Shown: positions 2,795 through 62,028, numbered from the stretch's first letter. The stretch: DNA of 64,000 nucleotides from Nannocystaceae bacterium ST9 (GCA_048320885.1 JBLWFJ010000001.1:1349642-1413641), one strand, 5' to 3'. Numbers and translations: made by a program. Notes: generated by a model from the letters alone, not told the origin.

Positions 2795-3967
2795 GTGAAG
2801 GGCCGGTTGCGACCTGTCGACTATCTGGGCTGGGCGCTGACCGTCCCTGCCCAGGCACGTTTCGACCTCACGGGCAGCGGTGTCCCGGACACCTGCGGAC
2901 CGGGGTCGCTGGTCGGCCGCGAAGGGGTCGGCGAGGACGAGCCGCCCGGGTTGCCCGGTCCGGACTGGGCCCCCGATCTCGCGCTCGCCGATCTCTGCCG
3001 CCGCGATCATCGACCCGAGCTCCACGCCGACTTCCTGCGGGTGGTGGCCGCCCGCTACGGCGTCGCGCCGGAGTGCGTGGTCCCGACGCTGGGCGCCAGC
3101 CAAGCCATCCCGCACGTGCTCTTCGCCCTCGCCCGCCCTGGCGATCACGTGATCGTCGAGCGCCCGACCTACGAACCGCTGCACCGCGTCCCGGAAATGT
3201 TGGGGCTCTCGGTGTCGAGGCTCGAGCGAAAGATCGAGGAGGGTTGGAGTCCGCTCCCCGATCGACTCGCTCGCCTGCTCACGCCCAAGACCCGGGCCGT
3301 GATCCTGACCAACCTCCACAACCCCACGGGCGTCGCCATGCGGACCGAGACCCTGGTCGCGATTGGCGAGATGGCCGCGCGAGTCGGAGCCGCGGTGCTG
3401 GTCGACGAGGTCTACCTCGACTTCGCGTTCGACTCGTCGGGCGAGACCCAGCCCTGGCGACCCGCGGCGGTCGCGATCGACAACGGCGTGAGCTGGTCGT
3501 CGACCACCAAGTGCTTCGGGTTCTCGGCCTTGCGCGCCGGCTGGGTCGTCACCCGCGACCTCGAGCTCGCTCAGGCCCTGCGTGCGTCCGCGCTCTATTT
3601 TCATGTCGACACTCCCCTGGCCTCGCTCGCCTTGGCCACGCGTGTGATGCGACACGCACCCGAGTTGGCGGCCCGCGCCAACCGATCGATCGAGCGTGTG
3701 AGAACGGTCGTCGATCGCTGGATCGCGAGCGAGCCCCGTGTGACCTGGATCCCACCCTCCGCGGGCCAGACCGGCCTCGTCCGCCTGCCCGATCTCATGC
3801 AGGACCTCGTGTTCGCCCAGCACCTGCGCGAGCGCTACGACACCCAAGTCGTCCCCGGCGCAATGTTCGAAGCCCCCGGCGCCGTCCGGCTGAGCTTCAA
3901 CCTCCCGCTCGAGGTGCTCGAGCAAGCGCTCGCAAATTTCTCCGCCGCGCTGGATGACTTGGCATGA
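2795..3967 (+). CDS. PLP-dependent aminotransferase (class I/II fold)
   Basis: 390 aa. Contains SSTTKCFG (PLP-lysine motif), TNLHNPTG and a conserved fold pattern. Divergent from the DUF2332 gene. Confidence 0.8.
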   Translation: MKGRLRPVDYLGWALTVPAQARFDLTGSGVPDTCGPGSLVGREGVGEDEPPGLPGPDWAPDLALADLCRRDHRPELHADFLRVVAARYGVAPECVVPTLGASQAIPHVLFALARPGDHVIVERPTYEPLHRVPEMLGLSVSRLERKIEEGWSPLPDRLARLLTPKTRAVILTNLHNPTGVAMRTETLVAIGEMAARVGAAVLVDEVYLDFAFDSSGETQPWRPAAVAIDNGVSWSSTTKCFGFSALRAGWVVTRDLELAQALRASALYFHVDTPLASLALATRVMRHAPELAARANRSIERVRTVVDRWIASEPRVTWIPPSAGQTGLVRLPDLMQDLVFAQHLRERYDTQVVPGAMFEAPGAVRLSFNLPLEVLEQALANFSAALDDLA

Positions 3968-3976
3968 GCTCCAATA

Positions 3977-4026
3977 GGGAGGCCGCGCCGCGCGGCCTCC
4001 CCCTCAGCTCGCTCCGCGAGCTGAGG
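3977..4026 (+). terminator. Two adjacent perfect GC hairpins just after the aminotransferase stop
   Basis: gggaggccgcg-ccg-cgcggcctccc (11-bp stem, 3977-4001) then cctcagctcg-ctccg-cgagctgagg (10-bp stem, 4002-4026). They sit at the left edge of the large inverted-repeat element. Confidence 0.45.
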
Positions 4027-4462
4027 AACCCCCTCCATGCGACCCTGCCTACGTGGGGCATTGCGTGGTTCCCCTGCTCGGGCCGTCTCGCCCTCGCGGG
4101 GAATGGACAACGGGTTCGGCTTCGCCTCCCCTCGCTCCCTGCTTCGGCGAGATCCCTTCGCCGAAGCAGAACCAACCTGCGCCGAAGCAGAACCAACCTG
4201 CGCCGAAGCAGAACCAAACTGCGCCGAAGCAGAACCAGCCTGCGCCGAAGCAGAACCAAACTGCGCCGAAGCAGAACCAAACTGCGCCGAAGCAGAACCA
4301 AACTGCGCCGAAGCAAACGACCCTCCGCCGAAGCGAGCAAGGGGAGCGAAGCGAACCCGCTGTCCATTCCCCGCGAGGGCGAGACGGCCCGAGCAGGGGA
4401 ACCACGCAATACCCCAAGTAGGCAGAGCCGCGTGGAGGGGGTTCCTCGAGCGAAGCTCGAGG
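3996..4462. repeat. Nested palindromic element: ~150-bp imperfect inverted-repeat arms flanking 8 x 21-bp tandem repeats
   Basis: Left arm ~3996-4150 and right arm ~4300-4462 are near-identical reverse complements; the core gcgtggttcccctgctcgggccgtctcgccctcgcggggaatggaca is perfect. The six-frame ORFs on both strands mirror each other here (MGYCVVPLLGPSRPRGEWT / MGHCVVPLLGPSRPRGEWT). Confidence 0.8.
4152..4320. repeat. 21-bp tandem repeat x8 (cgccgaagcagaaccaa[a/c]ctg)
   Basis: Direct reading of the sequence. The unit reads as the 7-aa PKQNQ[PT]A or AEAEP[TN]C in different frames. It lies in the loop of the inverted-repeat element. Confidence 0.85.
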
Positions 4463-4495
4463 GGGAGGCCGGCGGACGGCCTCCCTATTTCAGCC

Positions 4496-5239
4496 TCAGA
4501 ACCGCCACTCGACGATCAGCGGCAAGATCTGGATCGGCAGCGAGAACGCCGGATCCTTGTCGATCCCCTGGTTCGGCGGATGGTTGCGGTGGATCATCAG
4601 GCTCGGCCGAAATTCGACGTCGAGGCCGATCGCAAGCTCGCGCAGCAGGAAGAGCCGCAGGCCGACGCCGGCTTGGAAGCCGAGGGTCCAGCTGAGCTCG
4701 CGGCTCTGCTCGCGGGTGCCGTAGAGGTTCGGGTACTTCCAGAATCCGCCGGCCAGGCCGCCGCGGAAGATCGGGACCAGGAAGGGCGCCTTCTCGATGT
4801 AGAGCTTGTAGGTGTAGCCCAGCCAGACGTCGGCGCCGGCGACCGTGCCGGCGTCGCAGGTGCCGGTCTGGTTGTCCATGCCACACGAGGGCATGCGGAA
4901 GTCCTTGTACCCACCGCGATCGAAGAGCCCGGCGACGCCGATGTGAACCCAGTGCGCGCGGTGGATCTGGCGGTCGTACTGGATCCCGATCCGACCGCGC
5001 GGGACGTAGCCGACGATCCCGACCTGAACGGGCGCGAGCAGCGAGATCGCGTTGCCTCCGTACACGAAGTCCGGCAGCTTGAACCCGGTGTCCTGGCTCG
5101 AGGGGTTGGGCTTGCTGGCCCCGCTCGTCGGCGGCCCGGCGAGCGCCTCCGGGGCGAGCGCGAGCAGGATCATCGCGACGAGCAGAGGAAGGATCCGCTG
5201 GGCACGGGCTCGAAGTGGACGGGGGAGCGGACGTGACAT
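4496..5239 (-). CDS. Outer-membrane beta-barrel protein (hypothetical)
   Basis: 247 aa. Signal peptide MSRPLPRPLRARAQRILPLLVAMILLALAPEALA, alternating amphipathic beta-strand pattern, C-terminal ...IVEWRF (terminal aromatic). Confidence 0.65.
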   Translation of the reverse strand: MSRPLPRPLRARAQRILPLLVAMILLALAPEALAGPPTSGASKPNPSSQDTGFKLPDFVYGGNAISLLAPVQVGIVGYVPRGRIGIQYDRQIHRAHWVHIGVAGLFDRGGYKDFRMPSCGMDNQTGTCDAGTVAGADVWLGYTYKLYIEKAPFLVPIFRGGLAGGFWKYPNLYGTREQSRELSWTLGFQAGVGLRLFLLRELAIGLDVEFRPSLMIHRNHPPNQGIDKDPAFSLPIQILPLIVEWRF

Positions 5240-5283: not shown

Positions 5284-5913
5284 GTGTACCCCCTGTTCCT
5301 GCTCGCCGTGCTCACGGTGCTCACGCTCGGACTGGCCCAGCGCCTCGGCCTGCTGGGCGACACGACCCTGATGATCGGGGCCTCGCTGCTCGGCGGCGTG
5401 ACCTTCCTTTCCGTTCACCCCGACCTCGACTGGATCGGCGAAGAACCGCAAGATCAGACCTGCGGACTCGAAGGCGAAGACGAGCTGGCGATCCGGGTCG
5501 AGCGAATTTCGGTCGATGACGCGCAGGCATTGCTGGGCGACGAGACCGTGACCTTCGTCGACGCTCGCAGCGGCGACGACTACGTGGCGGCGCACATCCC
5601 CGGCGCCGTGAGCCTGCCGGCCAGCGACGCGGCCGGGATCCTCGAGATCCAGTCGGTGCCGATCCTGCCCGAGGGGCAGGTCATCACCTACTGCAACGGT
5701 GGCGCCTGCGAGCAGTCCGAGTACCTCGGCGTGCTGCTGCGCGACCGCGAGGTCTGCAAGCAGGTCATGGTGCTCGAGGGCGGCTGGGCGGCGTGGGTCG
5801 AGGCCGCGGCGCCGACGGTCAGCGGCGAGGGCCAAGATGGATCGATCTCGGTCGACGTCGCGAACCCGAGCCCGAGCGAGCCCTGCGAGCCGAGCGAGGC
5901 GGTGCGCGGATGA
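5284..5913 (+). CDS. Rhodanese-domain sulfurtransferase with N-terminal membrane anchor
   Basis: Active-site loop YCNGGACEQS, plus FVDARSGDDYVAAHIPGA; hydrophobic N-terminus. The stop overlaps the next start (ATGA 5910-5913). Confidence 0.7.
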   Translation: MYPLFLLAVLTVLTLGLAQRLGLLGDTTLMIGASLLGGVTFLSVHPDLDWIGEEPQDQTCGLEGEDELAIRVERISVDDAQALLGDETVTFVDARSGDDYVAAHIPGAVSLPASDAAGILEIQSVPILPEGQVITYCNGGACEQSEYLGVLLRDREVCKQVMVLEGGWAAWVEAAAPTVSGEGQDGSISVDVANPSPSEPCEPSEAVRG

Positions 5914-6374
5914 CCACGCTCGACACGACCTCGAAGGATCCCGAGTGGATGCGCGCGGCCGGCTGGATCGGTCGCTTGGTCGCGGGCGGCGTGTTCGTGT
6001 ACGCGGGCGGGCTCAAGCTGCTCGACCCGGCCGCGTTCGCGCAGGACATCGGCAACTATCAGGCCTTCCCCTGGTGGACCTGGAACCTCGCCGCCGCGGT
6101 CGTGCCGATCGCCGAGATCCTCGCCGGGCTCGCCCTGATCAGCGGCATCAAGCGGCGCGCCGGCGCGATCGTGCTCGGCTCGCTGACGGTCGCGTTCCTC
6201 GGCTTGATCGCCTCGGTGATCGTCCGCGGCATCGACTTGAACTGCGGCTGCTTCGGCGACGCGGCCGAGGCCAGCGCCGTCGGCTGGCCGCTCTTCTTCC
6301 GCGATCTCGCGCTGCTGGTCGCGATCGTCGCGGCCTACCTGCCGGCCGAGGCTCGCTCTTCGACCACGCCCTGA
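5910..6374 (+). CDS. DoxX/MauE-family membrane protein
   Basis: MTTLDTTSKDPEWMRAAGWIGRLVAGGVFVYAGGLKLLDP..., DLNCGCFG motif, 4 predicted TM helices. Translationally coupled to the rhodanese gene. Confidence 0.7.
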   Translation: MTTLDTTSKDPEWMRAAGWIGRLVAGGVFVYAGGLKLLDPAAFAQDIGNYQAFPWWTWNLAAAVVPIAEILAGLALISGIKRRAGAIVLGSLTVAFLGLIASVIVRGIDLNCGCFGDAAEASAVGWPLFFRDLALLVAIVAAYLPAEARSSTTP

Positions 6375-7354
6375 GCGTCCTCGGCCAGCGCCGCCGACTC
6401 GACCCGCGCAGCCGACTCAGACGCCGGCTCGGCCACCGGAGGGGGCCGGCCGATCAGGCTCCGCGCACGCGACCCGAGATCCCGCGCGAGCTTGGTCAGC
6501 GCGGCATAGTCGGAGTCCGACAAGAGCAGCATCTCCGCGCCGATCATGATCACCGCGAAGCTGTTGAGCCCCATGAACGAGAAGATCCCGAGGTGGAAGG
6601 AGATCGCACAGATCACCGCCACCCGACGCGGCCACGGCTTGCCGAAGAAGTAGACCCAGGGGAACGCGAGTTGGAGCATCAGCGGGGCCCAGGTCATCAG
6701 GCCGAGCAGGTAGCGGTTGTTCCAGATCAGCGCCCCGAACCCGGTCATGCCGAAGTCCTCCGAGGCGAGCACGTAGTAGAACGCCGTGCCGTTCTGCCAG
6801 TACTTGCCCGGCACCTTGGCGATGCCGGCGGTGAAGTACATGATCGAGATCTGGATCGCGCAGGCCAAGAGCGCGGCGTTGTGCAGCGTGATCCGAGTCC
6901 GCGACATCGGCTTGCCCTGGGCCGGCGAGTTCCACAGGTCGGCGAAGATCGCGAAGATCATGATGATCTCGGCCAGGTTGTCGCCGCCGTCCCAGAGCGC
7001 CGGACAGCGTGCATGCAGGCTGTGGACGACCCACCAGGCCAAGAGCGTTCCGACGTGGCCGCCCAAGCCGACGGTCCACAGGCCGAGCACGACCAGACCG
7101 GCGAGGTACCCGAACCACTGCCAGGCGTTGCTCCCGGACAGCGCCATGTACGAGTAGTGGATCCGGCCGAAGCTGGCGGCGAAGCCATCGTAGGGAAAGA
7201 TCGACCCCGGGCCCATCAACAGGTCGAACTGGCCGATGAGCATCGTCAACTGCAAGAGCAGCGCGGTGCCGACGATGACGCGGAACAGCACCGCGCCCCG
7301 GAGTTGGCGAGGCTCCTCGCTGAAGGAGTCCAAGACACGCGTGATTTCATTCAT
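6335..7354 (-). CDS. HTTM-domain (vitamin K-dependent gamma-carboxylase-like) integral membrane protein
   Basis: 339 aa, multi-TM, LRGAVLFRVIVGTALL... typical HTTM N-terminus. The start ATG overlaps the upstream stop (ATGAATGA at 7347-7354). Confidence 0.65.
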   Translation of the reverse strand: MNEITRVLDSFSEEPRQLRGAVLFRVIVGTALLLQLTMLIGQFDLLMGPGSIFPYDGFAASFGRIHYSYMALSGSNAWQWFGYLAGLVVLGLWTVGLGGHVGTLLAWWVVHSLHARCPALWDGGDNLAEIIMIFAIFADLWNSPAQGKPMSRTRITLHNAALLACAIQISIMYFTAGIAKVPGKYWQNGTAFYYVLASEDFGMTGFGALIWNNRYLLGLMTWAPLMLQLAFPWVYFFGKPWPRRVAVICAISFHLGIFSFMGLNSFAVIMIGAEMLLLSDSDYAALTKLARDLGSRARSLIGRPPPVAEPASESAARVESAALAEDAQGVVEERASAGR

Positions 7355-8165
7355 GGAAGTCGACCTCGGTCGGAGTCGGCGACGCGATCGGACCCGCTGG
7401 TTCCGTCAGCCCGGCTGCTTTCTGTTCGAAGTAGAGATCGAGGTACTCGCGGGCGCGGACATCGAGATCCTCGATCTCGGCGGGCCGCAGCCACGGCACG
7501 CTGACCGCGGTCGGCTCCTCGACGTGGTCGGGATCGTTGCGGTACGAATAGGGCGTGATCTTGCGGGTGACGATCCGGTAGCGGATGCGATCGACCTCGC
7601 CGACGCCATCCTGCCGACAGTAGTGCCAGATCAGGTGGTAGGCCGTGCGGCTCGAGGCGATGTTCTCGGCGACCTTGTGGGCGATCAGATCGTTGATCGC
7701 GTCGCGCTGCTCGGGCGGGGCCTCGTCGAGGCTGGCGATCAACTGATCGAGCAGGACGTCTTGACCGCCCAAGGTCGCGAGCACCGCGGCTTGCTCGATC
7801 CGGCGCAGGCGACCGGCGGGCCCGAAGCGGCGCCCCGCGTGGCTCTCGAGCAGCTCGTCGCCGCGGCTCAGCCACTCGGTCTCGACGCCGTCGCGATCGC
7901 ACTGGTAGTCGAGCCGGCGATCGAGCAGCGGCGGATCGGGGGCGAACAGAGTCCAGCGCTGACGGAAGAGCGGCTCGAGGTACGCGAGCGCCTCGTTGCG
8001 CCAGTGCAGACCGACGACGCTGACCGAGTTGAGATAGACGGCCGTGATCGTGAAGTGCACGGTCAAGACCGCCAAGCAGGCGACCGTCAGCGCTCGCGTG
8101 CGCCACGAGGGGGCCGCGAGCTGGGGTGGATTCGACGCGACTCGGGGATCGGGTTGGCTCGACAT
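7347..8165 (-). CDS. DUF5819-like protein (frequent HTTM partner)
   Basis: 272 aa with an N-terminal TM (LTVACLAVLTVHFTITAVYL). Sits immediately upstream of, and coupled with, the HTTM gene. Confidence 0.55.
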   Translation of the reverse strand: MSSQPDPRVASNPPQLAAPSWRTRALTVACLAVLTVHFTITAVYLNSVSVVGLHWRNEALAYLEPLFRQRWTLFAPDPPLLDRRLDYQCDRDGVETEWLSRGDELLESHAGRRFGPAGRLRRIEQAAVLATLGGQDVLLDQLIASLDEAPPEQRDAINDLIAHKVAENIASSRTAYHLIWHYCRQDGVGEVDRIRYRIVTRKITPYSYRNDPDHVEEPTAVSVPWLRPAEIEDLDVRAREYLDLYFEQKAAGLTEPAGPIASPTPTEVDFHE

Positions 8166-13232: not shown

Positions 13233-14068
13233 TCCCGCGGGTCCGCGTGCTGCCCGATCGCGGCACGCTGCTGGTCTCGACCGACCTGCACGGCAAGCGC
13301 GACAGCTTCGAGCGGCTGCGCGAGCGCTTCTTCGACCTGCGCGGGCGGCATGGCCCGTCCGAGACCCACTGGGCGCTGCTCGGCGATCTCGTGCACGGGC
13401 CCAGCCCGGAGGCGCGCGCCCGCAGCCCGCTCTACGACTACGAAGACGAGAGCCCGGCGCTGATCGACGCCGTGTTCGAGCTGCGCGAGCGCTTCCCCGA
13501 GCACGTCCACTTCGTGCTCGGCAACCATGATCATGGCCACGTCGGCGGACCGCACACCCGCAAGTTCCACGCCGACGAAGTGCTCGCGCTCGAGGCCCGG
13601 CTGACGCCCGAGCAGCGTCGCCGCGCCGAGCAGCTGTTCGGCCAGGCCCTGCTCGCGATCGCGACCCCGAGCGGCCTGCTGCTGACCCACGGATCGCCGG
13701 GCGAGGCCCTGCACTCGCTCGCCGATCTCGACGCGCTCGCGCTGGTCGACGAGCCCGACCCGCGCAAGCGCGAGCTGCTGCGCAGCATCCTCGGCGACTA
13801 CGGCCAGCGCGGCGAGGTCACGGCCCGCGTGCTCGCGAGCGTCTCGCGACCCGGGCTCGCGCTGCATCTGGTCGTGCACGGTCACGATCGCGACGAGTCG
13901 GGCTTGTTCGTCGAGGGCGGCAACCAGATCTGCCCGGTGATCTTCGGGGCCCGCCGCGAGCTCGAGCGCTGCCTGGTGCTCGATCTCGCCACACGACATC
14001 GCTGCGCGGCCGAGCTCCGCGAGGGCGTCGAGATCGTCCGCGTGCACGAGTCGCCCGCCGGCTGGTGA
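13228..14068 (+). CDS. Calcineurin-like metallophosphoesterase
   Basis: LLGDLVHGP and GNHDHG motifs. GTG start overlaps the acyl-CoA dehydrogenase stop (GTGA). Only the 3' part of the listed ORF 11828..14068 is coding. Confidence 0.7.
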
Positions 14069-14187
14069 CGACGCAAATGTCCGAGTGGCGCCGTTCGTGC
14101 GGCTATCGCCGCGAGAACGGCCGTTCGCACCATGGCAGAGATGTCGCGGGAAGGGCGGGCGCGGGTCTGGGACACTGGGCCTCTACC

Positions 14188-15930
14188 ATGACGCTGCGCA
14201 GCCTTCGTCCCCTCGCCTGCTTGCCGCTCGTCGCCGCGCTGGCCCTCGCGTTCGCGCCGACACCCGCCGAAGCCTGCGGCGGGACCTTCTGCGACGGCGC
14301 GCTCGGGCCCAACGTGATGCCCGTCGATCAGACCGGCGAGAACATACTGTTTTGGATCGATCACTCGGGCACGGAGCCACACACCGAGGCGCACATTCAG
14401 ATCCAGTACGAGGGCGACGCCGAGAACTTCGCCTGGATCATCCCGGTCCAGCAGGTCCCCGAGGTCTTGGTCGGCAACCAGGCGCTCTTCGACAACCTGC
14501 TCGCCGCGACCGTCCCGACCTTCACGATCACCACCAACTTCCAGTCGTGCCCGGACAGCGGGCCCTCGGTCGGCCTCTGTGCGTTCGGCAATGACGCGGC
14601 GCTCGCCGGCGACGACGAGGCCGGCGGCAGCTTCTCGTCCGGTGGCGACGAGGCCGGCGACGGGACCGGCGGGCCCGAGATCCTCGATCGCGGGTTCGCG
14701 GGCGCCTTCGAGTACGTCGTGCTGACCGGCGACTCCGTCCAGGAGATCGTCGACTGGCTCGACATGGCCGGCTACGCCCAGGACGACGACGCACCTCCGA
14801 TCCTGCAGGAGTACCTCGACGACGACTTCGTGTTCGTCGCCGTCAAGCTGCGCGGCGGCGTCGACGTCGACGAGATCCATCCGCTCGCGATCCGCTACCC
14901 CGGCGTCGAGCCCTGCATCCCGATCAAGCTGACCCGGATCGCCGCCGTCGACGACATGGCCATCCGCGCGTTCTTCCTCGGCGAGTCGCGGGCCGCCCCG
15001 ATGAACTGGCCGCACATCGTCGTCAACCCGGTCCGGCTCGACTGGGTCGCCAACCCGGCCGTCAACTACCTCGAGATCGTCTCGCTCGCGCTCGACGAAG
15101 CCGGCGGGCGGGCCTTCCTCACCGAGTACGCGGGCACCGACGCGATCGTCTCGACCAACGGGGTCGACAGCCCGGCCTGGGACCCGACCGCGTTCGAGGC
15201 GATCGAGCCGGTCGACGTCGTCGACGAGCTGATCCAGCAGGGCCTCGGGGCGACCTGCGACGATTTTGCCGGCACCTGCGTGTTCCCGCATCCGCAGGTC
15301 GAGCCGCTGCTCGCCAAGTACCTGCCCGCGCCGGCCAACCTGAACCCCTACGAGTTCTGGGGCGACCTGCACGCCTACGAGGGCCTGATCGACCTCGCCG
15401 CCTGGTCGGGCACCGGCTTCGCCACCGACTTCGCCGAGCGAATCTCGACCCCGGGCCAGCACGCGATCGAGATGCTCGAGAGCGCCAGCTACCTGACCCG
15501 CTTGATGACCCTGCTCTCGCCGCACGAGATGATCGAGGACCCGACCTTCCACGAGACCGACTCGCTGCCGCCGGTCGACAACTCGACGAGCGCGACCCGG
15601 ACGATCGCTTGCGAGGGCAACGACTGGATCGACCTCGCCGACGGCCGGCAGATCGCGCTGACCGACGTCGCCAACTACCCCGACATCGAGGGCATGCCGG
15701 CCGTCGAGATCATCGAGCAGATCCCGGCCATGGGTCCGCCGCAGGTCTCCACCGACAACCGTTCGAAGATCGACGAGCTGCTCGCCGAGTGGAACCACGG
15801 TCAGCTCGAGGGGCCCGCGCCCTGGAACTGCTCGGTCGTCGGCCTGCAGGCCGAGGCCCTGCTGACCATGCTCTCGCTCTTCGGCTTGGCCTGGTTGCAT
15901 CGCGGCCGCCGTCGCCGGATCTCCGCTTAG
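14188..15930 (+). CDS. DUF2330-domain secreted protein, copy 1, with MYXO-CTERM-like tail
   Basis: Internal Met MTLRSLRPLACLPLVAALALAFAPTPAEACGG (signal + ACGG). C-terminus NCSVVGLQAEALLTMLSLFGLAWLHRGRRRR, i.e. Cys motif, TM helix, Arg cluster. Confidence 0.7.
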   Translation: MTLRSLRPLACLPLVAALALAFAPTPAEACGGTFCDGALGPNVMPVDQTGENILFWIDHSGTEPHTEAHIQIQYEGDAENFAWIIPVQQVPEVLVGNQALFDNLLAATVPTFTITTNFQSCPDSGPSVGLCAFGNDAALAGDDEAGGSFSSGGDEAGDGTGGPEILDRGFAGAFEYVVLTGDSVQEIVDWLDMAGYAQDDDAPPILQEYLDDDFVFVAVKLRGGVDVDEIHPLAIRYPGVEPCIPIKLTRIAAVDDMAIRAFFLGESRAAPMNWPHIVVNPVRLDWVANPAVNYLEIVSLALDEAGGRAFLTEYAGTDAIVSTNGVDSPAWDPTAFEAIEPVDVVDELIQQGLGATCDDFAGTCVFPHPQVEPLLAKYLPAPANLNPYEFWGDLHAYEGLIDLAAWSGTGFATDFAERISTPGQHAIEMLESASYLTRLMTLLSPHEMIEDPTFHETDSLPPVDNSTSATRTIACEGNDWIDLADGRQIALTDVANYPDIEGMPAVEIIEQIPAMGPPQVSTDNRSKIDELLAEWNHGQLEGPAPWNCSVVGLQAEALLTMLSLFGLAWLHRGRRRRISA

Positions 15931-15969
15931 TTTTTGATCGATCACCACTGCCCAAGGCACGGCCCTGCC

Positions 15970-17682
15970 ATGCGACCCCTACTCACGATCTCTTCGTTAT
16001 CGACCCTCGCGCTCGGCCTCGGCCTCGCGCTCGCGCCCACGCCCGCCGACGCCTGCGGCGGGACCTTCTGCGACGGCGGCGGACCGACGGTGATGCCCGT
16101 CGATCAGACCGGCGAGAACATCCTGTTTTGGATCGATCACTCGGGCACGGAGCCGCACACCGAGGCGCACATTCAGATCCAGTACGAGGGCGAGGCGCAG
16201 GACTTCGCGTGGATCATCCCGGTCCAGCAGGTCCCCGAGGTCCTGGTCGGCAACCAGGCGCTCTTCGACAACCTGCTCGCCGCGACCGTCCCGACCTTCA
16301 CGATCACCACCACCAGCCAGACCTGCGACGACGGCTCGGTCGGGCTGTGTGCCGCGCGGGCCGAGGACAGCCAGTTCGCCGACGACGAGGCCGGTGACAT
16401 TGGCGGCGACGAAGGCGACACCGGCGACGGGACCGGCGGGCCCGAGATCCTCGATCGTGGGTTCGCGGGCGCCTTCGAGTACGTCGTGCTGACCGGCGAC
16501 TCCGTCCAGGAGATCGTCGACTGGCTCGACATGGCCGGCTACGCCCAGGACGACGACGCACCCCCGATCCTGCAAGAGTACCTCGACGACGACTTCGTGT
16601 TCGTCGCCGTCAAGCTGCGCGGCGGCGTCGACGTCGACGAGATCCATCCGCTCGCGATCCGCTACCCCGGCGTCGAGCCCTGCATCCCGATCAAGCTGAC
16701 CCGGATCGCCGCCGTCGACGACATGGCCATCCGCGCGTTCTTCCTCGGCGAGTCGCGGGCCGCCCCGATGAACTGGCCGCACGTGGTGCTCAACCCGGTC
16801 GCGTTCGATTGGGTCAACACCGCCAGCAACTACCTCGAGGTCGCCTCGCTGGCGATCGACGAGGCCGGCGGGCGAGCCTTCCTCACCGAGTACGCCGGCA
16901 TCGACGACATCGTCTCGACCAGCGGGGTCGACAGCCCGGCTTGGAACCCGAGCGCGTTCGAGGCGATCGAGCCGGTCGACGTCGTCGACGAGCTGACCAG
17001 CCAAGGCCTGGGCCTGACCTGCGACCCGTTCTCGAACGTGTGCAGCTTCGGCCACCCGCAGGTCGAGCCGCTGCTCGCCAAGTACCTGCCGGCCCCCGAT
17101 GGCGTGGACCCCTACGAATTCTGGGGCTCGCTCGCGTCCTACGAGGGCCTGATCGACCTCGCCGCCTGGTCGGGCACCGGCTTCGCCACCGACTTCGCCG
17201 AGCGGATCTCGACCCCGGGTCAGCACGCGATCGAGATGCTCGAGAGCGCCTCCTACCTGACCCGCCTGATGACCCTGCTCTCCCCGCACGAGATGATCGA
17301 GGACCCGACCTTCCACGAGACCGACTCGCTGCCCACGCTCGGCAACCAGTTCTCGGCCACGCGGACGATCGCCTGCGAGACCAACGACTGGGTCGACCTG
17401 CCCGACGAGCGCCAGGTCGCGCTGACCAACGGCAGCCTCTACCCCAGCATCGAGGGCATGCCCTTCGCCGAACGGATCGAGCAGATCCCGGCCATGGGCC
17501 CTGCCCAGATCACCACCGACAACCGCGCGACGATCGACGACCTGCTCGCCGACTGGAACGCCGGCAAGCTCTCGGGGCCCGAGCCCGGCTGCGCCGTCAC
17601 CCGCCTGCGGGCCGAGGCGCTGCTGACCATGCTCGCGCTGTTCGGGATCGCCGGGGCGACCCGCCGTCGGCGTCGGGGATGA
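15970..17682 (+). CDS. DUF2330-domain secreted protein, copy 2 (tandem paralog), with MYXO-CTERM-like tail
   Basis: MRPLLTISSLSTLALGLGLALAPTPADACGG...; C-terminus GCAVTRLRAEALLTMLALFGIAGATRRRRRG. Long blocks are nucleotide-identical to copy 1. Confidence 0.7.
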   Translation: MRPLLTISSLSTLALGLGLALAPTPADACGGTFCDGGGPTVMPVDQTGENILFWIDHSGTEPHTEAHIQIQYEGEAQDFAWIIPVQQVPEVLVGNQALFDNLLAATVPTFTITTTSQTCDDGSVGLCAARAEDSQFADDEAGDIGGDEGDTGDGTGGPEILDRGFAGAFEYVVLTGDSVQEIVDWLDMAGYAQDDDAPPILQEYLDDDFVFVAVKLRGGVDVDEIHPLAIRYPGVEPCIPIKLTRIAAVDDMAIRAFFLGESRAAPMNWPHVVLNPVAFDWVNTASNYLEVASLAIDEAGGRAFLTEYAGIDDIVSTSGVDSPAWNPSAFEAIEPVDVVDELTSQGLGLTCDPFSNVCSFGHPQVEPLLAKYLPAPDGVDPYEFWGSLASYEGLIDLAAWSGTGFATDFAERISTPGQHAIEMLESASYLTRLMTLLSPHEMIEDPTFHETDSLPTLGNQFSATRTIACETNDWVDLPDERQVALTNGSLYPSIEGMPFAERIEQIPAMGPAQITTDNRATIDDLLADWNAGKLSGPEPGCAVTRLRAEALLTMLALFGIAGATRRRRRG

Positions 17683-29164: not shown

Positions 29165-30514
29165 GTGGACGAGCTCGAGCCGCCGCTGACCAAGACCCAT
29201 CGCGCCGCGCTGGCCATCCACGCCGAAAAACGCCCGGGTCGACTGAAGCTGCGCTTGGTCGACGGGCCGAGCGGGTCGACCGACTTCGAGCTGACCAAGC
29301 CGACGATTCAGGTCGGCCGAAGCCCGATGGCCGACCTCGTGATCGACGAGCGCTCGATCAGCAAGATCCACTTCGAGCTGCGCCTGGCCGGGGGCGGCGT
29401 CGACCTGCGCGACCGCGAGAGCACCAACGGTTGCTGGCTGCAGGGTTGTCGAGTCTTCCACGCGCGCTTGCGGGTCGGCGACTCGTTCCGCGCCGGCGAC
29501 CTCCAGTTCATGATCGTCGGCGTCGACGAGGTCGACGTCGTGGTCACCTTGGCCCCGCGCTGCGGCGCGCTGCAAGGCGCGAGCGTGGTGATGCGCGAGC
29601 TGTTCGCGTCGATCGACGCGCTCTCGCTCGCGCCGCTCGACATCCTGATCCTCGGCGAGACCGGCACCGGCAAGGAGCTGACCGCCCGCACGCTTCATCA
29701 GCTCTCCGAGCGCCGATCCAAGCCCTTCGTGACCCTCGACTGCGGCGCGATCTCGGCCTCGCTCGCCGAGGGCACGCTCTTCGGGTTTCGCAAGGGCGCG
29801 TTCACGGGCGCCGACCATGATCAGCCGGGCGTGTTCGAGGAGGCCAACCGCGGGACCATCTTCCTCGACGAGATCGGCGAGCTCGTGCCCGAGCTGCAAG
29901 TCAAGCTGCTGCGAGTGCTCGAGCGACGCGAGGTCACCCGCATCGGCGAGCCGGCCAAGCCGCGAGCGCTCGACATCCGGGTCGTCGCGGCCACGCATCG
30001 CGACTTGCGGCGCGAGGTGGCCGAGGGCCGCTTCCGCGAGGATCTGTTCTATCGCTTGGCCCGCGGCCTGATCACGCTCCCACCCCTGCGCGAGCGTGGC
30101 GAGGACATCCTCATGCTCGCCGACGATTTCCTGGGCAAGCTGCGCGACGAGTTCGGCCGCGACGTCCGAATGAGCGCCGCGTGCAGGGACGCGATGCTGC
30201 GGCATCCCTGGCCCGGCAACGTCCGCGAGCTGCGGAACTGCATCGAGCAGGCCTTCCACATCAAGCGCTCGGGCGAGCTCGCGGCGAGCGACCTGCGACT
30301 CGGCACCCTGGCGTGGAAGAGCCAAGGCACGTCCGAGCTGGCCGACGCGACCAAGACCTACGCCGACGCCCACGTCGCGCTGGACAAGGTGTTCTTGGCC
30401 AAGGTGCTCGAGAGCACGAGCGGCAACCTCTCGGAGGCGGCCCGCCGACTCGGCCTCAGCCGCGACACGCTGCGAGTCAAGCTGAAGGCCGCTCGGCTCT
30501 ACCCCGACGGCTGA
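29165..30514 (+). CDS. FHA-domain sigma-54-dependent transcriptional activator
   Basis: N-terminal FHA ([26 protein letters not shown]), GETGTGKE Walker A, GAFTGA motif, C-terminal HTH. GTG start. Confidence 0.85.
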
Positions 30515-31265
30515 GGGATTCTCGTCACCTGTCGCGCCGTCATGGTTCCGGCACGATCGTGAGCCAGACATCGACCGGTTCGTGCAACACGTCGACGCGC
30601 CAGACCCCCGAGTGCTCGAAGTCCACGATCGAGTAGTCGTCGACCAGCGTGAAGAACACCGGCTGGCGAACTCGCTCATCGAGGGCCTCTTGCTCGGTCG
30701 CTGGGTTTTCGGCCAGACAGCGCTCGTACCAGATCACCAGCCCCTCGGAGCGCTCCAGCCGGTAGGTCCCGGGCTCGGGCATGTCGATCAGGAAGCTCTG
30801 ATACATGTCCGTGGAGCCGTTGGCCTCGTTCTGATTGGTCTTCTCGTAGGGCCCGAGCGTGGCCTCGTCCTCACAGTCGAACTTCGCCTCGAACACCCAG
30901 CCACCTTCCGCTCGGGCCTCGAGCAGCAGCATGTCGGCGCACTGCCGATGTTGAATCCACATCGCCGGCGACTGGCTCGCGTAGTCCGTCGCCAGCGACG
31001 CTCCATACGCGGACTCCATGGCCGACCAGACGCCCTCGTCGTAGGTCGCGGTCCGGTAGAGCGCCGCAAATTCCTCCGGGCCCAATTGCTCGGCCAGCCA
31101 ACGCGTGAAGTGGCCTGCACGAGAATAGAAGGGGCCGAAGTCGCTCGAGTGGACCTCGGAAAACTCTCGCGGATCGGACAGCGATTCGTTGATCGAAGGC
31201 TCGAAGCTGACGGCGAGGCCCTCGGCCAAGATCGAGGGGGCACCGGTTCGAATCTCGCATGCGAC
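30514..31265. repeat. Segmental direct repeat, copy A (~750 bp)
   Basis: Near-identical to 31840-32590; identity ends at ...ggttcgaatc. Confidence 0.85.
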
Positions 31266-31673: not shown

Positions 31674-31839
31674 GACCGCTCCAGTAAAGCACGCCCTTCT
31701 GGGCATCCTCCATCGCCATCCTCACGTCGAACATGCTGCGAGTCGAGCTGAAGCCCGAGGGATTCTTGGTCGGAGGCTGACGAACGACTCGTCGACCTTC
31801 GTTGTTCGGACCAGATGCGCCGCGCGAGCGCCCGAGCGG

Positions 31840-32590
31840 CGAGGGATTTCTCGTCACCTGTCGTGCCGTCATGGTTCTGGCACGATCGTGAACCAGACAT
31901 CGACCGGCGGCCCATGTTCGTGCAACACGTCGACGCGCCAGACCCCCGAGTGCTCGAAGTCCACGATCGAGTAGTCGTCGACCAGCGTGAAGAACACCGG
32001 CTGGCGAACTCGCTCATCGAGGGCCTCTTGCTCGGTCGCTGGGTTTTCGGCCAGACAGCGCTCGTACCAGATCACCAGCCCCTCGGAGCGCTCCAGCCGG
32101 TAGGTCCCGGGCTCGGGCATGTCGATCAGGAAGCTCTGATACATGTCCGTGGAGCCGTTGGCCTCGTTCTGATTGGTCTTCTCGTAGGGCCCGAGCGTGG
32201 CCTCGTCCTCACAGTCGAACTTCGCCTCGAACACCCAGCCACCCTCCGCTCGGGGTTCGAGCAGCGGCATGTCGGCGCACTGCCGATGTTGAATCCACAT
32301 CGCCGGCGATTGGCTCGCGTAGTCCGTCGCCAGCGACGCTCCGTAGGCGGACTCCATCGCCGACCAGACCCCCTCGTCGTAGGTCGCGGTCCGGTAGAGC
32401 GCCGCAAACTCCTCCGGGCCCAATTGCTCGGCCAGCCAACGCGTGAAGTGGCCTGCGCGATCGTAGTAGGGGCTGAATTCGTCCAAATGGACCTCGGAAA
32501 ACTCTCGAGGATCGGACGGCCACTCGTTGATCGAGGGCTCGAAGCTGACGGCGAGGCCCTCCGTCAAGATCGAGGGCGCCCCGGTTCGAA
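31840..32590. repeat. Segmental direct repeat, copy B (~750 bp)
   Basis: Near-identical to 30514-31265. Confidence 0.85.
31869..32590 (-). pseudogene. 5'-truncated duplicate of the HExxH lipoprotein gene (no signal peptide or HExxH)
   Basis: ORF 31869..32771 is identical to gene 30540..31673 from IRTGAPSIL onward. Upstream of the breakpoint the frame reads the antisense of another gene (S/T-rich, atypical composition). Confidence 0.45.
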
Positions 32591-33183: not shown

Positions 33184-34521
33184 TCACTCGCCGGACTCGA
33201 AGCGCTTGAGCCGACGCCAGAGCGTCGAAGGGTTGATCCCGAGGATCTTCGCCGCCTGCTCGCGAGTCTCGCACTCGGCCAGTACGCCGAGGATGTGGCG
33301 CTGCTCGATCGCCGCGAGCGTGGTTCGACTGCCGAGCTCGGGCCCTCGCTCGACCCGGGCGCGCACGCGCTGCGAGAGCTGCTCGGCGGCGATGGTGGGT
33401 CCGCGCGCCAGGACCAGCGCGCGCTCCATCTCGTTGCGAAGCTCGCGGACGTTGCCCGGCCAGGCGTGGCCGCGCAGGGTCGCCTCGGCCTCGTGGCTCA
33501 GGCTCGGCGTCGGTCGATTCGCTCGCATCGCCGCGCGGGCCAGGAAGTGGCGGGCGAGCTCGGGAATGTCGGCCGCTCGCTCGCGCAGCGAAGGGACCTC
33601 GACCTCGATCACGTTGAGCCGGTAGAGCAGGTCGAGGCGCATGCGACCGGCGGCGACCTCGAGGTCGACGTCGCGGTTGGTCGCCGACACGATCCGCAGG
33701 TCGGCCCGCCGCGTCCGCGCCTCGCCGACCCGCTCGAACTCGAAGTCCTGGACGAAGCGCAGCAGCTTGGCCTGCGCGCCGCTGCCGATCTCGGCGATCT
33801 CGTCGAGGAACAAGGTCCCGCCCTCGGCCTCCTCGACGCGGCCGACCTGATCGCGGACCGCCCCGGTGAACGCCCCGCGGACATGACCGAAGAGCTCGCT
33901 GGTCAGCAGCTCGTCGCCGAGCGTCGGGCAGTTGATCGTGACCAGCGGACGCTCGGCTCGCGCGCTGCCGCGGTGAAGCAGGCGAGCGAGCACGCCCTTG
34001 CCGGTCCCGCTCTCGCCTCGCAGCAGCACGGGCGCGTCGCTGCTCGCGGCTTGCCGGATCGTATCGATCGCCGCCTGCATCGCGGCCGAGTGGGTGTGCA
34101 GCAGGACCTGGTCGGGATCGCCGGCCTCGGCTCGCCCGCCGACGTCGAGGACGTCGAGCTCGACGCGCGCTCGCTCGACGACCTCGCGGACCTGCGCCGG
34201 CGTGAAGGGCTTGGCCAGGTAGTCGCGCGCGCCTCGACGGATCGCCTCGACCGCGGTCGCGATGCTCGCGTAGGCCGTGATCAGCACGGCGTAGAGCTGC
34301 GGGTGATCGTGCACGAGCGAGGCGGTCAGCGCGATCCCGTCGTCGCAGCCGAGCCGGAGATCGACGAACGCGAGATCGAAGGCCTTGCTCTGCGCGGCCG
34401 CTTGCGCCTCGGCGGCACTGGCCGCGCGATGGACCGCGCAGCCGATCGCCTCAAGGCACATCCCGAGCGTCGCGCGAATGTTGGGCTCGTCGTCGACGAC
34501 CAGCACCCGAAGCCCGCTCAT
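33184..34521 (-). CDS. Sigma-54-dependent response regulator (NtrC family)
   Basis: Receiver domain (VLVVDDEPNIR...DLAFVDLRLG), GESGTGKG, GAFTGA, C-terminal HTH. Start overlaps the ptsN stop (ATGA). Confidence 0.85.
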   Translation of the reverse strand: MSGLRVLVVDDEPNIRATLGMCLEAIGCAVHRAASAAEAQAAAQSKAFDLAFVDLRLGCDDGIALTASLVHDHPQLYAVLITAYASIATAVEAIRRGARDYLAKPFTPAQVREVVERARVELDVLDVGGRAEAGDPDQVLLHTHSAAMQAAIDTIRQAASSDAPVLLRGESGTGKGVLARLLHRGSARAERPLVTINCPTLGDELLTSELFGHVRGAFTGAVRDQVGRVEEAEGGTLFLDEIAEIGSGAQAKLLRFVQDFEFERVGEARTRRADLRIVSATNRDVDLEVAAGRMRLDLLYRLNVIEVEVPSLRERAADIPELARHFLARAAMRANRPTPSLSHEAEATLRGHAWPGNVRELRNEMERALVLARGPTIAAEQLSQRVRARVERGPELGSRTTLAAIEQRHILGVLAECETREQAAKILGINPSTLWRRLKRFESGE

Positions 34522-59899: not shown

Positions 59900-60672
59900 G
59901 ACCGAGCCCGAGACCGAGACCGAGACTGGTCGATTTTCTCCCCACGGCCCGGCGACCGCTGCTTCGAGAGCGGACGCCGGGCCGAGCTGCGCTTGGAACT
60001 CACCGCCGCATCGCCACCCAGCACGCCGAAGCGATCGGGGTGGCTACCGCAATTCCCGAGCATCAATCTCCACGACGACCCCGCAGCCATCCTCGAGTTC
60101 GACAGACCTGCGGGCCGATGGCGTCGAGGCCCGCATTCATTACTTTCGTTCGCGCGCACCTTCGTGTTCGCGAGCGCCGATCTCGGCCGCACCGCACAAT
60201 GCCGATTCGTAGGTGTCGACACGACATCCATGGTTTGGGGGACGCCGAGTAGGCATCGACATGACTCCTGGCAGGTTGTCGGAGTGCGATGTACCGCCCG
60301 GAGCACCTCGAAAGGACTCTTTTGGTACCTCTCCCCATGCGCATGCCACTCACTTCCGCTTGCTACACCTGCATCGGGCTCGGTGGAGCCTCTCGCATCG
60401 TGAGTTCGCGTACACGCACGAGAAAAACGCGACGGCCAAATGGCCGGATGCCCAAAAGGCCAGTGGCATGAGTCATAGCGAAGAATCGCATTTCCGCGCC
60501 GGTCATTTTCAATACACACGGCGCGAGCGCATGCCCGTGTACGTCTGTACAAATCGCGGCAGAGTGGATTTGCGTTTTCAGCGACCCTGCAATTAACGAC
60601 GCATCGCGAATCGCATCATTGCGTGAACCCTCGGCTGCTTGCCACGACACATCCTCGTGGCAGGTTGCAATC

Positions 60673-62028
60673 ATGATCGCACGTTCGACATCGACGATGG
60701 CCTTCGCACTGCTCTTGACCGCCGGTTGTGATGGCGAGCCGATCGACGAGCTCCGCTCGTCGCAAGGCCATCACGGTGGCGGGCACGGCCATGGCGGAGG
60801 CCATGGCGGGCACGGCCACGGCCATCATCACGGCAATCACGGTCATCATCACGGCAATCACGGTCATCATCACGGCAATCATCATGGCCATCATGGCCAT
60901 CATGGCCACTGCACGCAGCTCGACATCGGCGATCTACTCGAGGGTTACGACGAATCGACCAATCCTTATACCGATCCGGCGATGTGGCTCAGCGGCCCCG
61001 ATTCGAGCGACGATTTCGTACTTTCCGTGAACTTGGATACCACGATCGTCCATCCAGACCTCTCGACCGAGGTGATTCATCCCGAGCGGCCCGAGGACCC
61101 CGACCTCGACATCTTCTTCGTCCACCCCACGGTCAACTTGAGCCCGGCGCTCGGCAACGATGATTTGTCCGATCTGGCCAACACCAAGGCGTTCGTGGCC
61201 GAGAGCGTCGCGCGCTTCTCGACGATCGGCCGGGTGATCACGCCGCTCTATCACTCGGCGACCGCCGGGGCGTTCCTGCCTGGAAATCGTGCCGTCCGCG
61301 ACGCTTACTTCGAAATCGCGTACCAGGACGTCGAGGACGCCTTCACCCACTATCTGGCCAATCACTGGAACGGGCGAAAGCTCGTGCTGATGGGGTTCTC
61401 GCAGGGCAGCATCATGACTCGAATGCTGCTCCAGCGCTTCATCGCGGGCCACCCCGACTTGATGAGCCGAGTCGTGGTGGTGATGCCGCTGAGCGGCGAT
61501 TTCCAGGTCGACTCGGTCGACTTCGTGCCGCCCTGCGAGGACGACGATCAGACCGGCTGCTACGTCACCTATCATGCGTTCGTGGACGGATTTGGGCCGA
61601 GCGACACGCCCCCGTCCACGGTCGGGGAATGGGTATGCAGCGACACGGCGGCCTGCACCCCCGTGACCGACGATGGCGTGCTCTCGATGTCCTATTTCTC
61701 GCTTCCGCAGGTCCCGGGCGCGCTGCCGGGCGACGCGCTGGCGGACATCCCGATCGAAATCGACACGCCCTTCATGGCATTCCCCGAGTTCTACGCCGCC
61801 GATTGCGTCGACGAGGGTGGCGAGTACCTCCAGGTCCAGCAAGCGGACCTCGACGACGAGCGCTGGACGCCGATCGACTACACGCACCCCTTCGCGTCGA
61901 ACGCCCCGCCCTTCGGCCTGGGATTGCACATCTTCGACTTCAGCCTGGGCATGGGTGACCTGCTCGAGCTCGTCGAGGACAAGGCCGACGAGCTCGACGA
62001 CGAATCGGCCTTCTGTGTGCTGAAGTAG
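60673..62028 (+). CDS. Lipoprotein with His/Gly-rich metal-binding repeat and DUF3089-like alpha/beta-hydrolase domain
   Basis: MIARSTSTMAFALLLTAGC lipobox; HGGGHGHGGGHGGHGHGHHHGNHGHHHGNHGHHHGNHHGHHGHHGH (24-bp tandem repeats); GFSQGS nucleophile elbow. Confidence 0.65.
   Translation: MIARSTSTMAFALLLTAGCDGEPIDELRSSQGHHGGGHGHGGGHGGHGHGHHHGNHGHHHGNHGHHHGNHHGHHGHHGHCTQLDIGDLLEGYDESTNPYTDPAMWLSGPDSSDDFVLSVNLDTTIVHPDLSTEVIHPERPEDPDLDIFFVHPTVNLSPALGNDDLSDLANTKAFVAESVARFSTIGRVITPLYHSATAGAFLPGNRAVRDAYFEIAYQDVEDAFTHYLANHWNGRKLVLMGFSQGSIMTRMLLQRFIAGHPDLMSRVVVVMPLSGDFQVDSVDFVPPCEDDDQTGCYVTYHAFVDGFGPSDTPPSTVGEWVCSDTAACTPVTDDGVLSMSYFSLPQVPGALPGDALADIPIEIDTPFMAFPEFYAADCVDEGGEYLQVQQADLDDERWTPIDYTHPFASNAPPFGLGLHIFDFSLGMGDLLELVEDKADELDDESAFCVLK

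Follow-up and report, generated by a model that had tools for sequence, protein, structure and literature searches.

Introduction

Small repeats with parts of the architecture reported here have been described in several bacteria. BrickBuilt is a MITE of Porphyromonas gingivalis that carries a 23-nt minisatellite; it has small inverted-repeat ends and is found in 19 copies per genome, with the array in every copy (PMC4596501). Bacterial MITE-like repeats have TA termini and give long stem-loop transcripts, as reviewed in PMC2229807. Among these, ERIC, Correia and RUP units are 100–170 bp long, and each is a palindrome with terminal inverted repeats of 4–24 bp (PMC2229807). REPs are 20–40 nt long, carry a GTAG or CGTC tag, occur in hundreds of copies and come with a RAYT gene (PMC3733652 for the definition). 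REPINs are organised as doublets and singlets (PMC3116915). Rho-independent bidirectional terminators are GC-rich perfect hairpins that follow convergent stop codons directly and can be read on both strands.

This study describes a locus of Nannocystaceae bacterium ST9 (Myxococcota, Polyangia, Nannocystales) at which a long palindrome with an internal 21-bp tandem array lies between two convergent genes. The element fits a known class, the small non-autonomous palindromic intergenic repeats, and is best filed there as a new family. This family is previously undescribed in ST9-like Nannocystaceae (Myxococcota), and the literature yielded no such repeat elements for Nannocystaceae.

Results

Location and architecture of the element

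The window, the whole 64-kb stretch of DNA that was analysed, is ordinary chromosome with a kdp operon, a TRAP transporter, a P450 and sigma-54 activators. A preliminary description made from the sequence had placed a nested palindromic element with tandem repeats at 3975–4480. The feature is real, and every part described was found, with small corrections. One of these concerns the extent: the element is where it had been placed, but its true span is slightly wider (3968–4495). The features are as follows, with positions counted from the first nucleotide of the window.

2795–3967, plus strand: class I/II aminotransferase gene (context; PF00155, E = 2.2e-38; GC3 = 0.86)
3968–4495, no strand: whole non-coding insertion, a 528-bp stop-to-stop spacer between convergent genes (ORF map)
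3965–4149, minus strand: left arm, one copy of the dispersed repeat with its outer end on the left, running from inner to outer end on the minus strand
3977–4001, no strand: left terminal hairpin A, GGGAGGCCGCGC-c-GCGCGGCCTCCC, with 12-nt arms that are 100% complementary (repeat scan)
4002–4026, no strand: left hairpin B, CCTCAGCTCGC-TCC-GCGAGCTGAGG, with an 11-bp stem
4060–4109, no strand: left half of the perfect 50-bp inverted core, holding the 48-nt family core as its reverse complement
4139–4169, no strand: tip hairpin, CTGCTTCGGCGA-gatccct-TCGCCGAAGCAG, with 12-nt arms that are 100% complementary (-23.8 kcal/mol, z = -6.3)
4155–4334, plus strand: 21-bp minisatellite (TRF score 290, 8.6 copies, 93% matches, consensus CCTGCGCCGAAGCAGAACCAA)
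4326–4498, plus strand: right arm, the second copy of the repeat, inverted, with its outer end on the right
4363–4410, plus strand: 48-nt family core, TCCATTCCCCGCRAGGGCGAGACRGCCCGAGCAGGGGAACCACGCAAT, invariant at 46/48 positions in 5/5 arms (alignment)
4444–4462, no strand: right hairpin B, CCTCGAGC-GAA-GCTCGAGG, with an 8-bp stem and a GAA loop
4463–4485, no strand: right terminal hairpin A, GGGAGGCCG-GCGGA-CGGCCTCCC, with a 9-bp stem
4496–5239, minus strand: gene for a 247-aa conserved hypothetical protein ending in ...EWRF (context; GC3 = 0.87)

Both stop codons, that of the aminotransferase gene (3965–3967) and that of the 247-aa gene (4496–4498), adjoin the element. The 247-aa product is a hypothetical membrane protein, 100% identical to hypothetical protein ACNOYE_05700 of Nannocystaceae bacterium ST9. 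GC content of the element is 64–68% throughout.

The repeat scan identified ungapped inverted arms of 96 nt with 94% complementarity (4023–4118/4352–4447). When indels were allowed, in a gapped local alignment against the reverse complement, the arms extended to 3965–4149 and 4326–4498 with matches in 160/188 columns, which gives arm lengths of 173–185 nt. The longest perfect inverted stretch is 50 bp (4060–4109/4361–4410). Near-complementary arms had been described before, with a perfect core of 47 bp; the arms stand, but the core is 50 bp long and the arms, once gapped, reach the lengths above. The expectation for a 43-nt arm pattern in shuffled sequence was 0.00. Against the family profile the left and right arms scored nhmmer E = 4.9e-37 and E = 4.5e-46, respectively.

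The array, previously counted as eight tandem copies, is present with 8.6 copies by TRF, and is made up of seven near-identical units (4155–4301) and two degenerate ones. The 21-bp motif was found nowhere else in the 64-kb window.

GC hairpins had also been noted at the outer edges, and two perfect ones were found on each side. Left hairpin A begins 9 nt past the aminotransferase stop codon; it forms 11 pairs in the RNA fold, compared with 12-bp arms in the repeat scan. Right hairpin A stops 10 nt short of the stop codon of the 247-aa gene. The tip hairpin is the meeting point of the inner ends of the two units, CTGCTTCGGCGA and TCGCCGAAGCAG, across a 7-nt loop.

Coding capacity and other functional signatures

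The element is non-coding. GC3 was 0.62–0.71 in all six frames, compared with 0.8–1.0 in the genes of the window. Pfam returned nothing above threshold for the element, only a sub-threshold low-complexity match, and a concatenated six-frame query had no match among 5.8 billion proteins. A full HMMER scan of the stop-free frame 3964–4494 against 1.84 billion representative proteins gave 67 matches; 67/67 fell on the Arg/Ser-rich RRSRTNL motif into which the 21-bp repeat translates, and the arms had no match. A protein-coding repeat protein was therefore rejected on the low GC3, the sub-threshold Pfam result and HMMER matches confined to the low-complexity RRSRTNL repeat. The view that the open reading frames are mirror artefacts and not gene-like agrees with this GC3 range and with the lack of protein homologues of the arms.

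The whole window had no match in Rfam 15 at gathering thresholds, and at E <= 10 there were only chance matches far below threshold. The element contains no tRNA or tmRNA. No sigma-70 promoter was found in or beside it, and no IHF site, such as Correia elements have, within it. GCGAAGC mini-hairpins are not enriched in the window (28 observed, 29.6 expected).

A phage or plasmid origin was rejected: blastn against phages and plasmids gave no match, and neither did two core patterns against viral contigs. The hairpin-A pattern matched an unrelated phage hairpin (L011), which is not a copy of the family. Transposase, reverse transcriptase and TnpB domains were absent from the window genes tested, flanking genes included, and no Y1 transposase (RAYT) gene was present among the genes tested in the 64-kb window. 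A retron msr/msd was rejected, there being no RT domain in the flanking or other tested window genes. An iteron-type origin was rejected as well, since the adjacent genes encode an aminotransferase and a hypothetical membrane protein, GC content is 64–68%, and there is no plasmid or phage similarity.

Dispersed copies of the repeat unit

Core 19- and 20-mers were used as exact words to scan public genomes and metagenomes. The scan of 185,579 species genomes yielded one real copy, and a further two came from 241 million metagenome records, so that the arm search gave three more copies in unrelated contexts. A 19-mer match in a member of the Verrucomicrobia (L001) was due to chance and is not a family copy. 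The three copies are as follows.

L002, about 5868–6082 of Myxococcales MAG JANNHJ010000203: between divergent amidohydrolase and UbiA prenyltransferase genes, with the outer end about 20 nt upstream of the UbiA start codon
L003, about 1445–1612 of a metagenome contig: an ArsC-like gene stops about 30–45 nt before the inner end; the outer end of the unit is exactly where the contig terminates
L004, about 225–440 of a metagenome contig: outer end directly against the stop codon of a gene for an unrelated membrane protein, which was rejected as an orthologue of the ST9 flanking gene

Together with the ST9 pair this makes five arms in four unrelated contexts. A second inverted arm was present in 0/3 of the loci L002, L003 and L004. 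The solo copies matched the arm profile at nhmmer E values of 1e-43 to 1e-46, and single units are about 160–215 nt long. Because the family was found elsewhere only as single arms, the recurring unit is one multi-hairpin arm and the 500-bp palindrome an inverted pair specific to ST9. The preliminary description had suggested a MITE or REP-like element. The assignment to a dispersed non-coding class, with empty sites, holds; the unit is one arm, however, and the palindrome a composite specific to ST9.

Pairwise identity among the arms was 82–92% over 157–222 aligned columns; the right ST9 arm is 92% identical to the L003 solo copy and 85% to the L002 copy. The UbiA proteins of ST9 and L002 share 82% identity, which makes the L002 organism a relative of ST9. 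With UbiA only 82% identical, neutral intergenic DNA should not align between these organisms. The conserved hairpin of the core has the form UUCCCCGC..GGGC-loop-GCCC..GC.GGGGAA, and both variable core positions are unpaired in it as predicted.

The remaining hairpins show mosaic relations. Right-arm hairpins A and B are of the L003/L004 type, and the sequence of right hairpin B is identical in L003 and L004; the left-arm hairpins are unique and longer. A variable hairpin is common to both ST9 arms, with a 2-nt insertion and GTAGGCAG. The stem of hairpin A stays perfect despite differing top bases, CGC/GCG in the ST9 left arm, GC/GC in L003 and L004, and CC/GG in L002. Hairpin B has two different perfect stems among the copies. 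Perfect stems combined with a mosaic point to hairpin maintenance or templated correction within palindromes, plus module exchange between copies. Hairpin A was also considered as an independent short REP and rejected, as it occurs only inside arms.

In L004, the 21-bp unit AACCAAMCTGCGCCGAAGCAG has an aligned counterpart, CAGACTACGCGTCGAAGCAG, which is single-copy and lies close to the inner end of the arm. Since the 21-bp unit has this single-copy homologue, the array is an amplified inner-end segment of the right ST9 arm and no independent module. The earlier picture of the 21-bp repeats as a separate core enclosed between the arms is given up in favour of this one.

The nhmmer arm profile identified family copies at one locus in the 64-kb window. 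No copy was found in about 107 kb of relatives' loci, which is what remains of about 125 kb once the three solo-arm loci and the chance-match loci L001 and L011 are set aside. The family appears sparse as far as sampled.

Filled and empty sites

The ST9 gene pair is also present in the three closest available relatives, L005, L007 and L008, and there the element is missing. The spacers between the equivalent genes are 7 bp (L005), 10 bp (L007) and 4 bp (L008). Flank-protein identity to ST9 is 79%, 82% and 75%, respectively, 82% being the best non-self value.

A second comparison is provided by the UbiA locus, where the L002 spacer is 362 bp, compared with 59, 137 and 115 bp in relatives (L012, L013, L015–L017; UbiA identity 79–84%). 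Both flanks of this site can be recognised in the relatives by conserved sequence. The excess is about 225–300 bp and, in the two longer-spacer relatives, fits a unit length of about 215 nt. Orthologous sites are thus empty at two loci, and parsimony, applied across relatives and not strains, therefore favours insertion rather than deletion at both.

TA is present at both ends of the ST9 element. It also lies past the outer end of the L003 and L004 solo copies, and L002 is without it. Because TA follows two solo outer ends and is missing in L002, the TA at the two ST9 ends cannot be called a target duplication. No matching duplication was seen at the inner ends of the solo units, where the flanking DNA is rich in GC and low in complexity.

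Predicted folding

The whole region was folded as RNA of either strand and as DNA. The plus-strand RNA gave -391 kcal/mol (z = -25.7), the minus-strand RNA -432.9 kcal/mol (z = -22.9) and the DNA -227 kcal/mol (z = -22.8). No shuffle (0) equalled either RNA strand or the DNA, and the fold of the whole element is thus far beyond chance (z of about -23 to -26). Left hairpins A and B jointly folded at -46.7 kcal/mol (z = -7.1) and the right pair at -34 kcal/mol (z = -4.3). Solo arms were also more stable than their shuffles (z = -2.5 to -4.2).

Among the transition differences between the two ST9 arms, 5/6 still allow G.U pairing in the minus strand, as against 1/6 in the plus strand, and the minus strand therefore folds better (-432.9 vs -391 kcal/mol). 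This asymmetry is only a weak hint of constraint at the RNA level, in the sense direction of the 247-aa gene.

The terminator scan reported only three weak sites; all of them lie within the array, and neither hairpin A nor hairpin B was among them. These hairpins are followed by CCCUCAG or UAUUU; they have no U-tract and were therefore unreported by the consensus scan. Canonical intrinsic termination is not predicted for hairpins without T-runs, and the suggestion that the element is a structured bidirectional terminator was not borne out in its canonical form.

Comparison with described repeats

BrickBuilt (PMC4596501) and other tandem-repeat MITEs such as DTC84 (PMC3879986) are, like the ST9 element, intergenic, non-coding and limited in host range. 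BrickBuilt further resembles it in a spacerless head-to-tail minisatellite (23 nt; 21 nt in ST9) placed between leader and tail parts with inverted repeats. In contrast, the ST9 arms are 173–185 nt long and almost fully complementary, and the array is found in one copy, where it derives from an arm segment. Elsewhere the family consists of single arms, and it has no sequence relationship to BrickBuilt.

With ERIC/IRU, Correia/NEMIS and RUP repeats (PMC2229807) the element shares a small size, an intergenic non-coding position, TA termini, transcripts predicted to fold as long stem-loops, and presence or absence between related genomes. High sequence conservation across species at moderate copy number is a likeness to ERIC (PMC2229807). 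Unlike these palindromic units, the unit of the ST9 family is a string of separate hairpins that is not palindromic overall; only the ST9 pair is. A further difference from these repeats is that the ST9 element has no IHF site and no related IS is known. By analogy to the ERIC/Correia kind, an effect on mRNA processing through RNase III or RNase E is plausible for the ST9 element.

REP, BIME and REPIN sequences (PMC3116915, PMC3337134, PMC2817692, PMC3733652) are likewise extragenic hairpins with inverted doublets, singlets and a mosaic structure, and they lie behind stop codons between convergent genes. The ST9 family differs in a unit of 160–215 nt with several hairpins, in the lack of a tag at the foot of hairpin A, and in the few copies seen. 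It thus departs from strict REPs in unit length and sequence tag. The likeness to Rho-independent bidirectional terminators lies in GC-rich perfect hairpins right after convergent stops, readable on both strands. The ST9 element differs in having no U-tract, in being far larger than needed and, in L002, in lying upstream of a start codon.

Measured against MITEs, the element is 528 bp long (MITEs being under about 600 bp) and non-coding, with no protein homologues of the arms. Terminal inverted repeats are represented by the 173–185-nt inverted arms in ST9, and the three other copies have no inverted partner. Dispersal and presence/absence are documented by five arms in four contexts and by empty sites at two loci.

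Discussion

The element is probably a non-autonomous, lineage-specific insertion of the MITE/REPIN/BIME kind, made of two inverted units with their inner ends facing. From the outer to the inner end a unit comprises GC hairpin A, hairpin B, the variable hairpin, the 48-nt core hairpin and a CGAAGC-rich segment. Units may move or copy themselves to new intergenic sites non-autonomously, with the protein supplied in trans. An inverted pair would then have settled between two convergent stop codons in ST9, and slipped-strand mispairing would afterwards have expanded the final 21 nt or so of the right unit to about 8 copies.

Several consequences would follow from such a structure. The very stable hairpins 9–10 nt past the two stop codons could act on both convergent transcripts, as a stop or a stabiliser at the 3' end. 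Read-through RNA would form a duplex of about 180 bp, a candidate RNase III substrate by analogy with Correia and ERIC (PMC2229807). As DNA, the palindrome may extrude as a cruciform, and the copy number of the array would be prone to change.

Some findings speak against a mobile element. The copy number seen is low, with one locus in the window and three solo copies in the exact 19-/20-mer scans, and there is neither a clear target-site duplication nor a transposase domain in the window genes tested. We know of no parent IS for the family. Against a purely selfish repeat stands the core, conserved at 46/48 positions between organisms about 80% identical in protein; a repeat that was only selfish and decaying would be expected to have diverged more.

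One alternative, which we consider unlikely though the best of those examined, takes the arm as a conserved structured RNA gene or a cis-acting part of such an RNA: it could be an sRNA with hairpins B and A at its end, a module of a 3' UTR or a guide-RNA scaffold that an IS200/IS605-type element left behind, and ST9 would hold its inverted duplication. The core is invariant at 46/48 positions at about 80% protein identity, with its variable positions unpaired in the predicted hairpin, and solo arms fold better than their shuffles (z = -2.5 to -4.2). Few copies are seen per genome, and UAUUU or UAUU follows hairpin A in the ST9 copies. The G.U asymmetry, 5/6 transitions on the minus strand and 1/6 on the plus, points the same way but is not significant (5/6, two-sided p of about 0.2). 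However, no Rfam match was obtained even at E <= 10, there is no promoter-like site, and sequence upstream of the solo copies is unconserved. The position relative to genes varies: units lie past stops in ST9 and L004, with the inner end towards the stop in L003, and about 20 nt before a start in L002. The element is also missing at orthologous sites and in the 41 kb of the sister organism (L005, L012) sampled, and compensatory changes are confined to the terminal hairpin.

A related view, which also seems unlikely, takes the unit not as selfish DNA but as a conserved structured RNA or protein-recognition module of Nannocystaceae, whose core hairpin, containing internal loops rich in G/A, would be under purifying selection. 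Such a module could provide a hairpin scaffold for a system of HUH or TnpB type, or act at RNA 3' ends and have spread by duplication, and the ST9 palindrome would be its duplicated, expanding variant.

An improbable alternative is a strict REP/REPIN system, in which single-stranded DNA hairpins serve a RAYT or IS200/IS605-type tyrosine (HUH) transposase, the pair replicates and the singles are decayed. One doublet in ST9 and three singlets elsewhere recall REPIN organisation (PMC3116915, PMC3337134). Solo units have subterminal perfect hairpins without a terminal inverted repeat or evident target duplication, and stems stay perfect through two-sided changes. Yet the units measure 160–215 nt and not 20–40 nt, and no GTAG or CGTC tag is present at the foot of hairpin A (PMC3733652). 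Hundreds of copies were not seen as far as sampled, the window has no Y1 transposase domain, and the singlets are the best conserved copies instead of decayed ones.

Strong hairpins 9–10 nt past both stop codons, together with a palindrome symmetry that reaches both stop codons, would suit a bidirectional terminator or attenuator that evolved locally for both convergent genes and is not mobile. Such an origin is very improbable and is already contradicted by the dispersed copies, as the arm sequence is present at unrelated loci, one of them upstream of a start codon. Relatives cope with 4–10 bp between the equivalent stop codons, there is no T-run past the hairpins, and the terminator scan reported neither A nor B.

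A protein-binding array (an iteron-like origin, a partition or a regulatory site) or a code for a heptad-repeat peptide is hardly credible: 21 bp does equal two helical turns or seven codons, and two 122-aa ORFs span the array (4053–4421, plus strand; 4049–4417, minus strand), but no rep, par or regulator gene is adjacent, the motif is found nowhere else in the window, GC3 is 0.62–0.71 with protein matches only to low-complexity repeats, and relatives are without the whole region, the homologous segment being single-copy in L004.

The mobile, non-autonomous repeat therefore remains our preferred reading. Only the near-invariant 48-nt core, kept between organisms at about 80% protein identity, is left unexplained if the element is taken as purely selfish. 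The family provides two clean comparisons of filled and empty sites, and the ST9 locus shows a route from single repeat units to a long palindrome with an internal minisatellite. In practice, assembly errors and changes in copy number are likely to concentrate at this locus, which is also a candidate marker for strain typing. Lying directly past two convergent genes, the strong hairpins of the element may alter their 3'-end formation.

Terminal hairpin and arm sites

The terminal hairpin of the arm, the dispersed repeat unit found as an inverted pair in ST9, is not by itself diagnostic of the arm family, because the hairpin GGGAGGCCG...CGGCCTCCCTA is also present at 9173-9199 of L011, an unrelated, low-GC viral contig from IMG/VR. 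There it is an ordinary terminator-like hairpin and is preceded by an A-run.

In L003, a metagenome contig with a solo arm, positions 1410-1440 are taken up by a few tandem repeats, (TCTGA)n / TCTGATCTGA. The stop codon of an ArsC-like gene lies immediately before them, and the arm begins just after them with its inner end.

In another relative, L009, the flank protein is 73% identical to the one encoded beside the ST9 element. After the stop codon of its gene, a different GC-rich sequence (ttttcaggaggcacccgccggtgctgcccccc...cgaagcgag..., 7311-7395) replaces the aminotransferase gene, and the contig stops at this sequence. It had no match to the nhmmer profile of the arm family. Possibly the GC-rich sequence is a second kind of intergenic insert, located where ST9 has its element.

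Other repeats in the window

Degenerate repeats of 12 and 21 nt (CACGGCCATCATCACGGCAAT) were located in frame at 60763-60912, inside the ORF at 60619-62028; this ORF codes for a DUF3089 protein, and the repeats give it a run rich in histidine close to its N-terminus. At 766-892, not far from the window's left end, degenerate direct repeats of 21 and 24 nt (CGTGTCGCTCGACGACGAGTCC...) also lie inside ORFs and probably code for a repeat that is either acidic or rich in serine.

DUF2330 paralogues are arranged in tandem at 14065-17682, sharing DNA blocks that are 80-100% identical at a spacing of ~1764-1776 bp. The syntenic place in another relative, L005, holds three tandem DUF2330 genes.

A further direct repeat lies between two sigma-54 activator genes.

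Direct repeat and flanking genes (window coordinates)
29165-30514, + strand, sigma-54 activator gene with FHA domain, on one side of the repeat
30508-30877 and 31837-32215, direct repeat, ~370 bp per copy
33184-34521, - strand, sigma-54 activator gene with receiver domain, on the other side

The two copies share 300 nt that are 100% identical, at a spacing of 1329-1338 bp. The ORFs that they overlap had no match in Pfam. A hypothetical gene and the region upstream of it appear to have undergone tandem duplication, or gene conversion, very recently.
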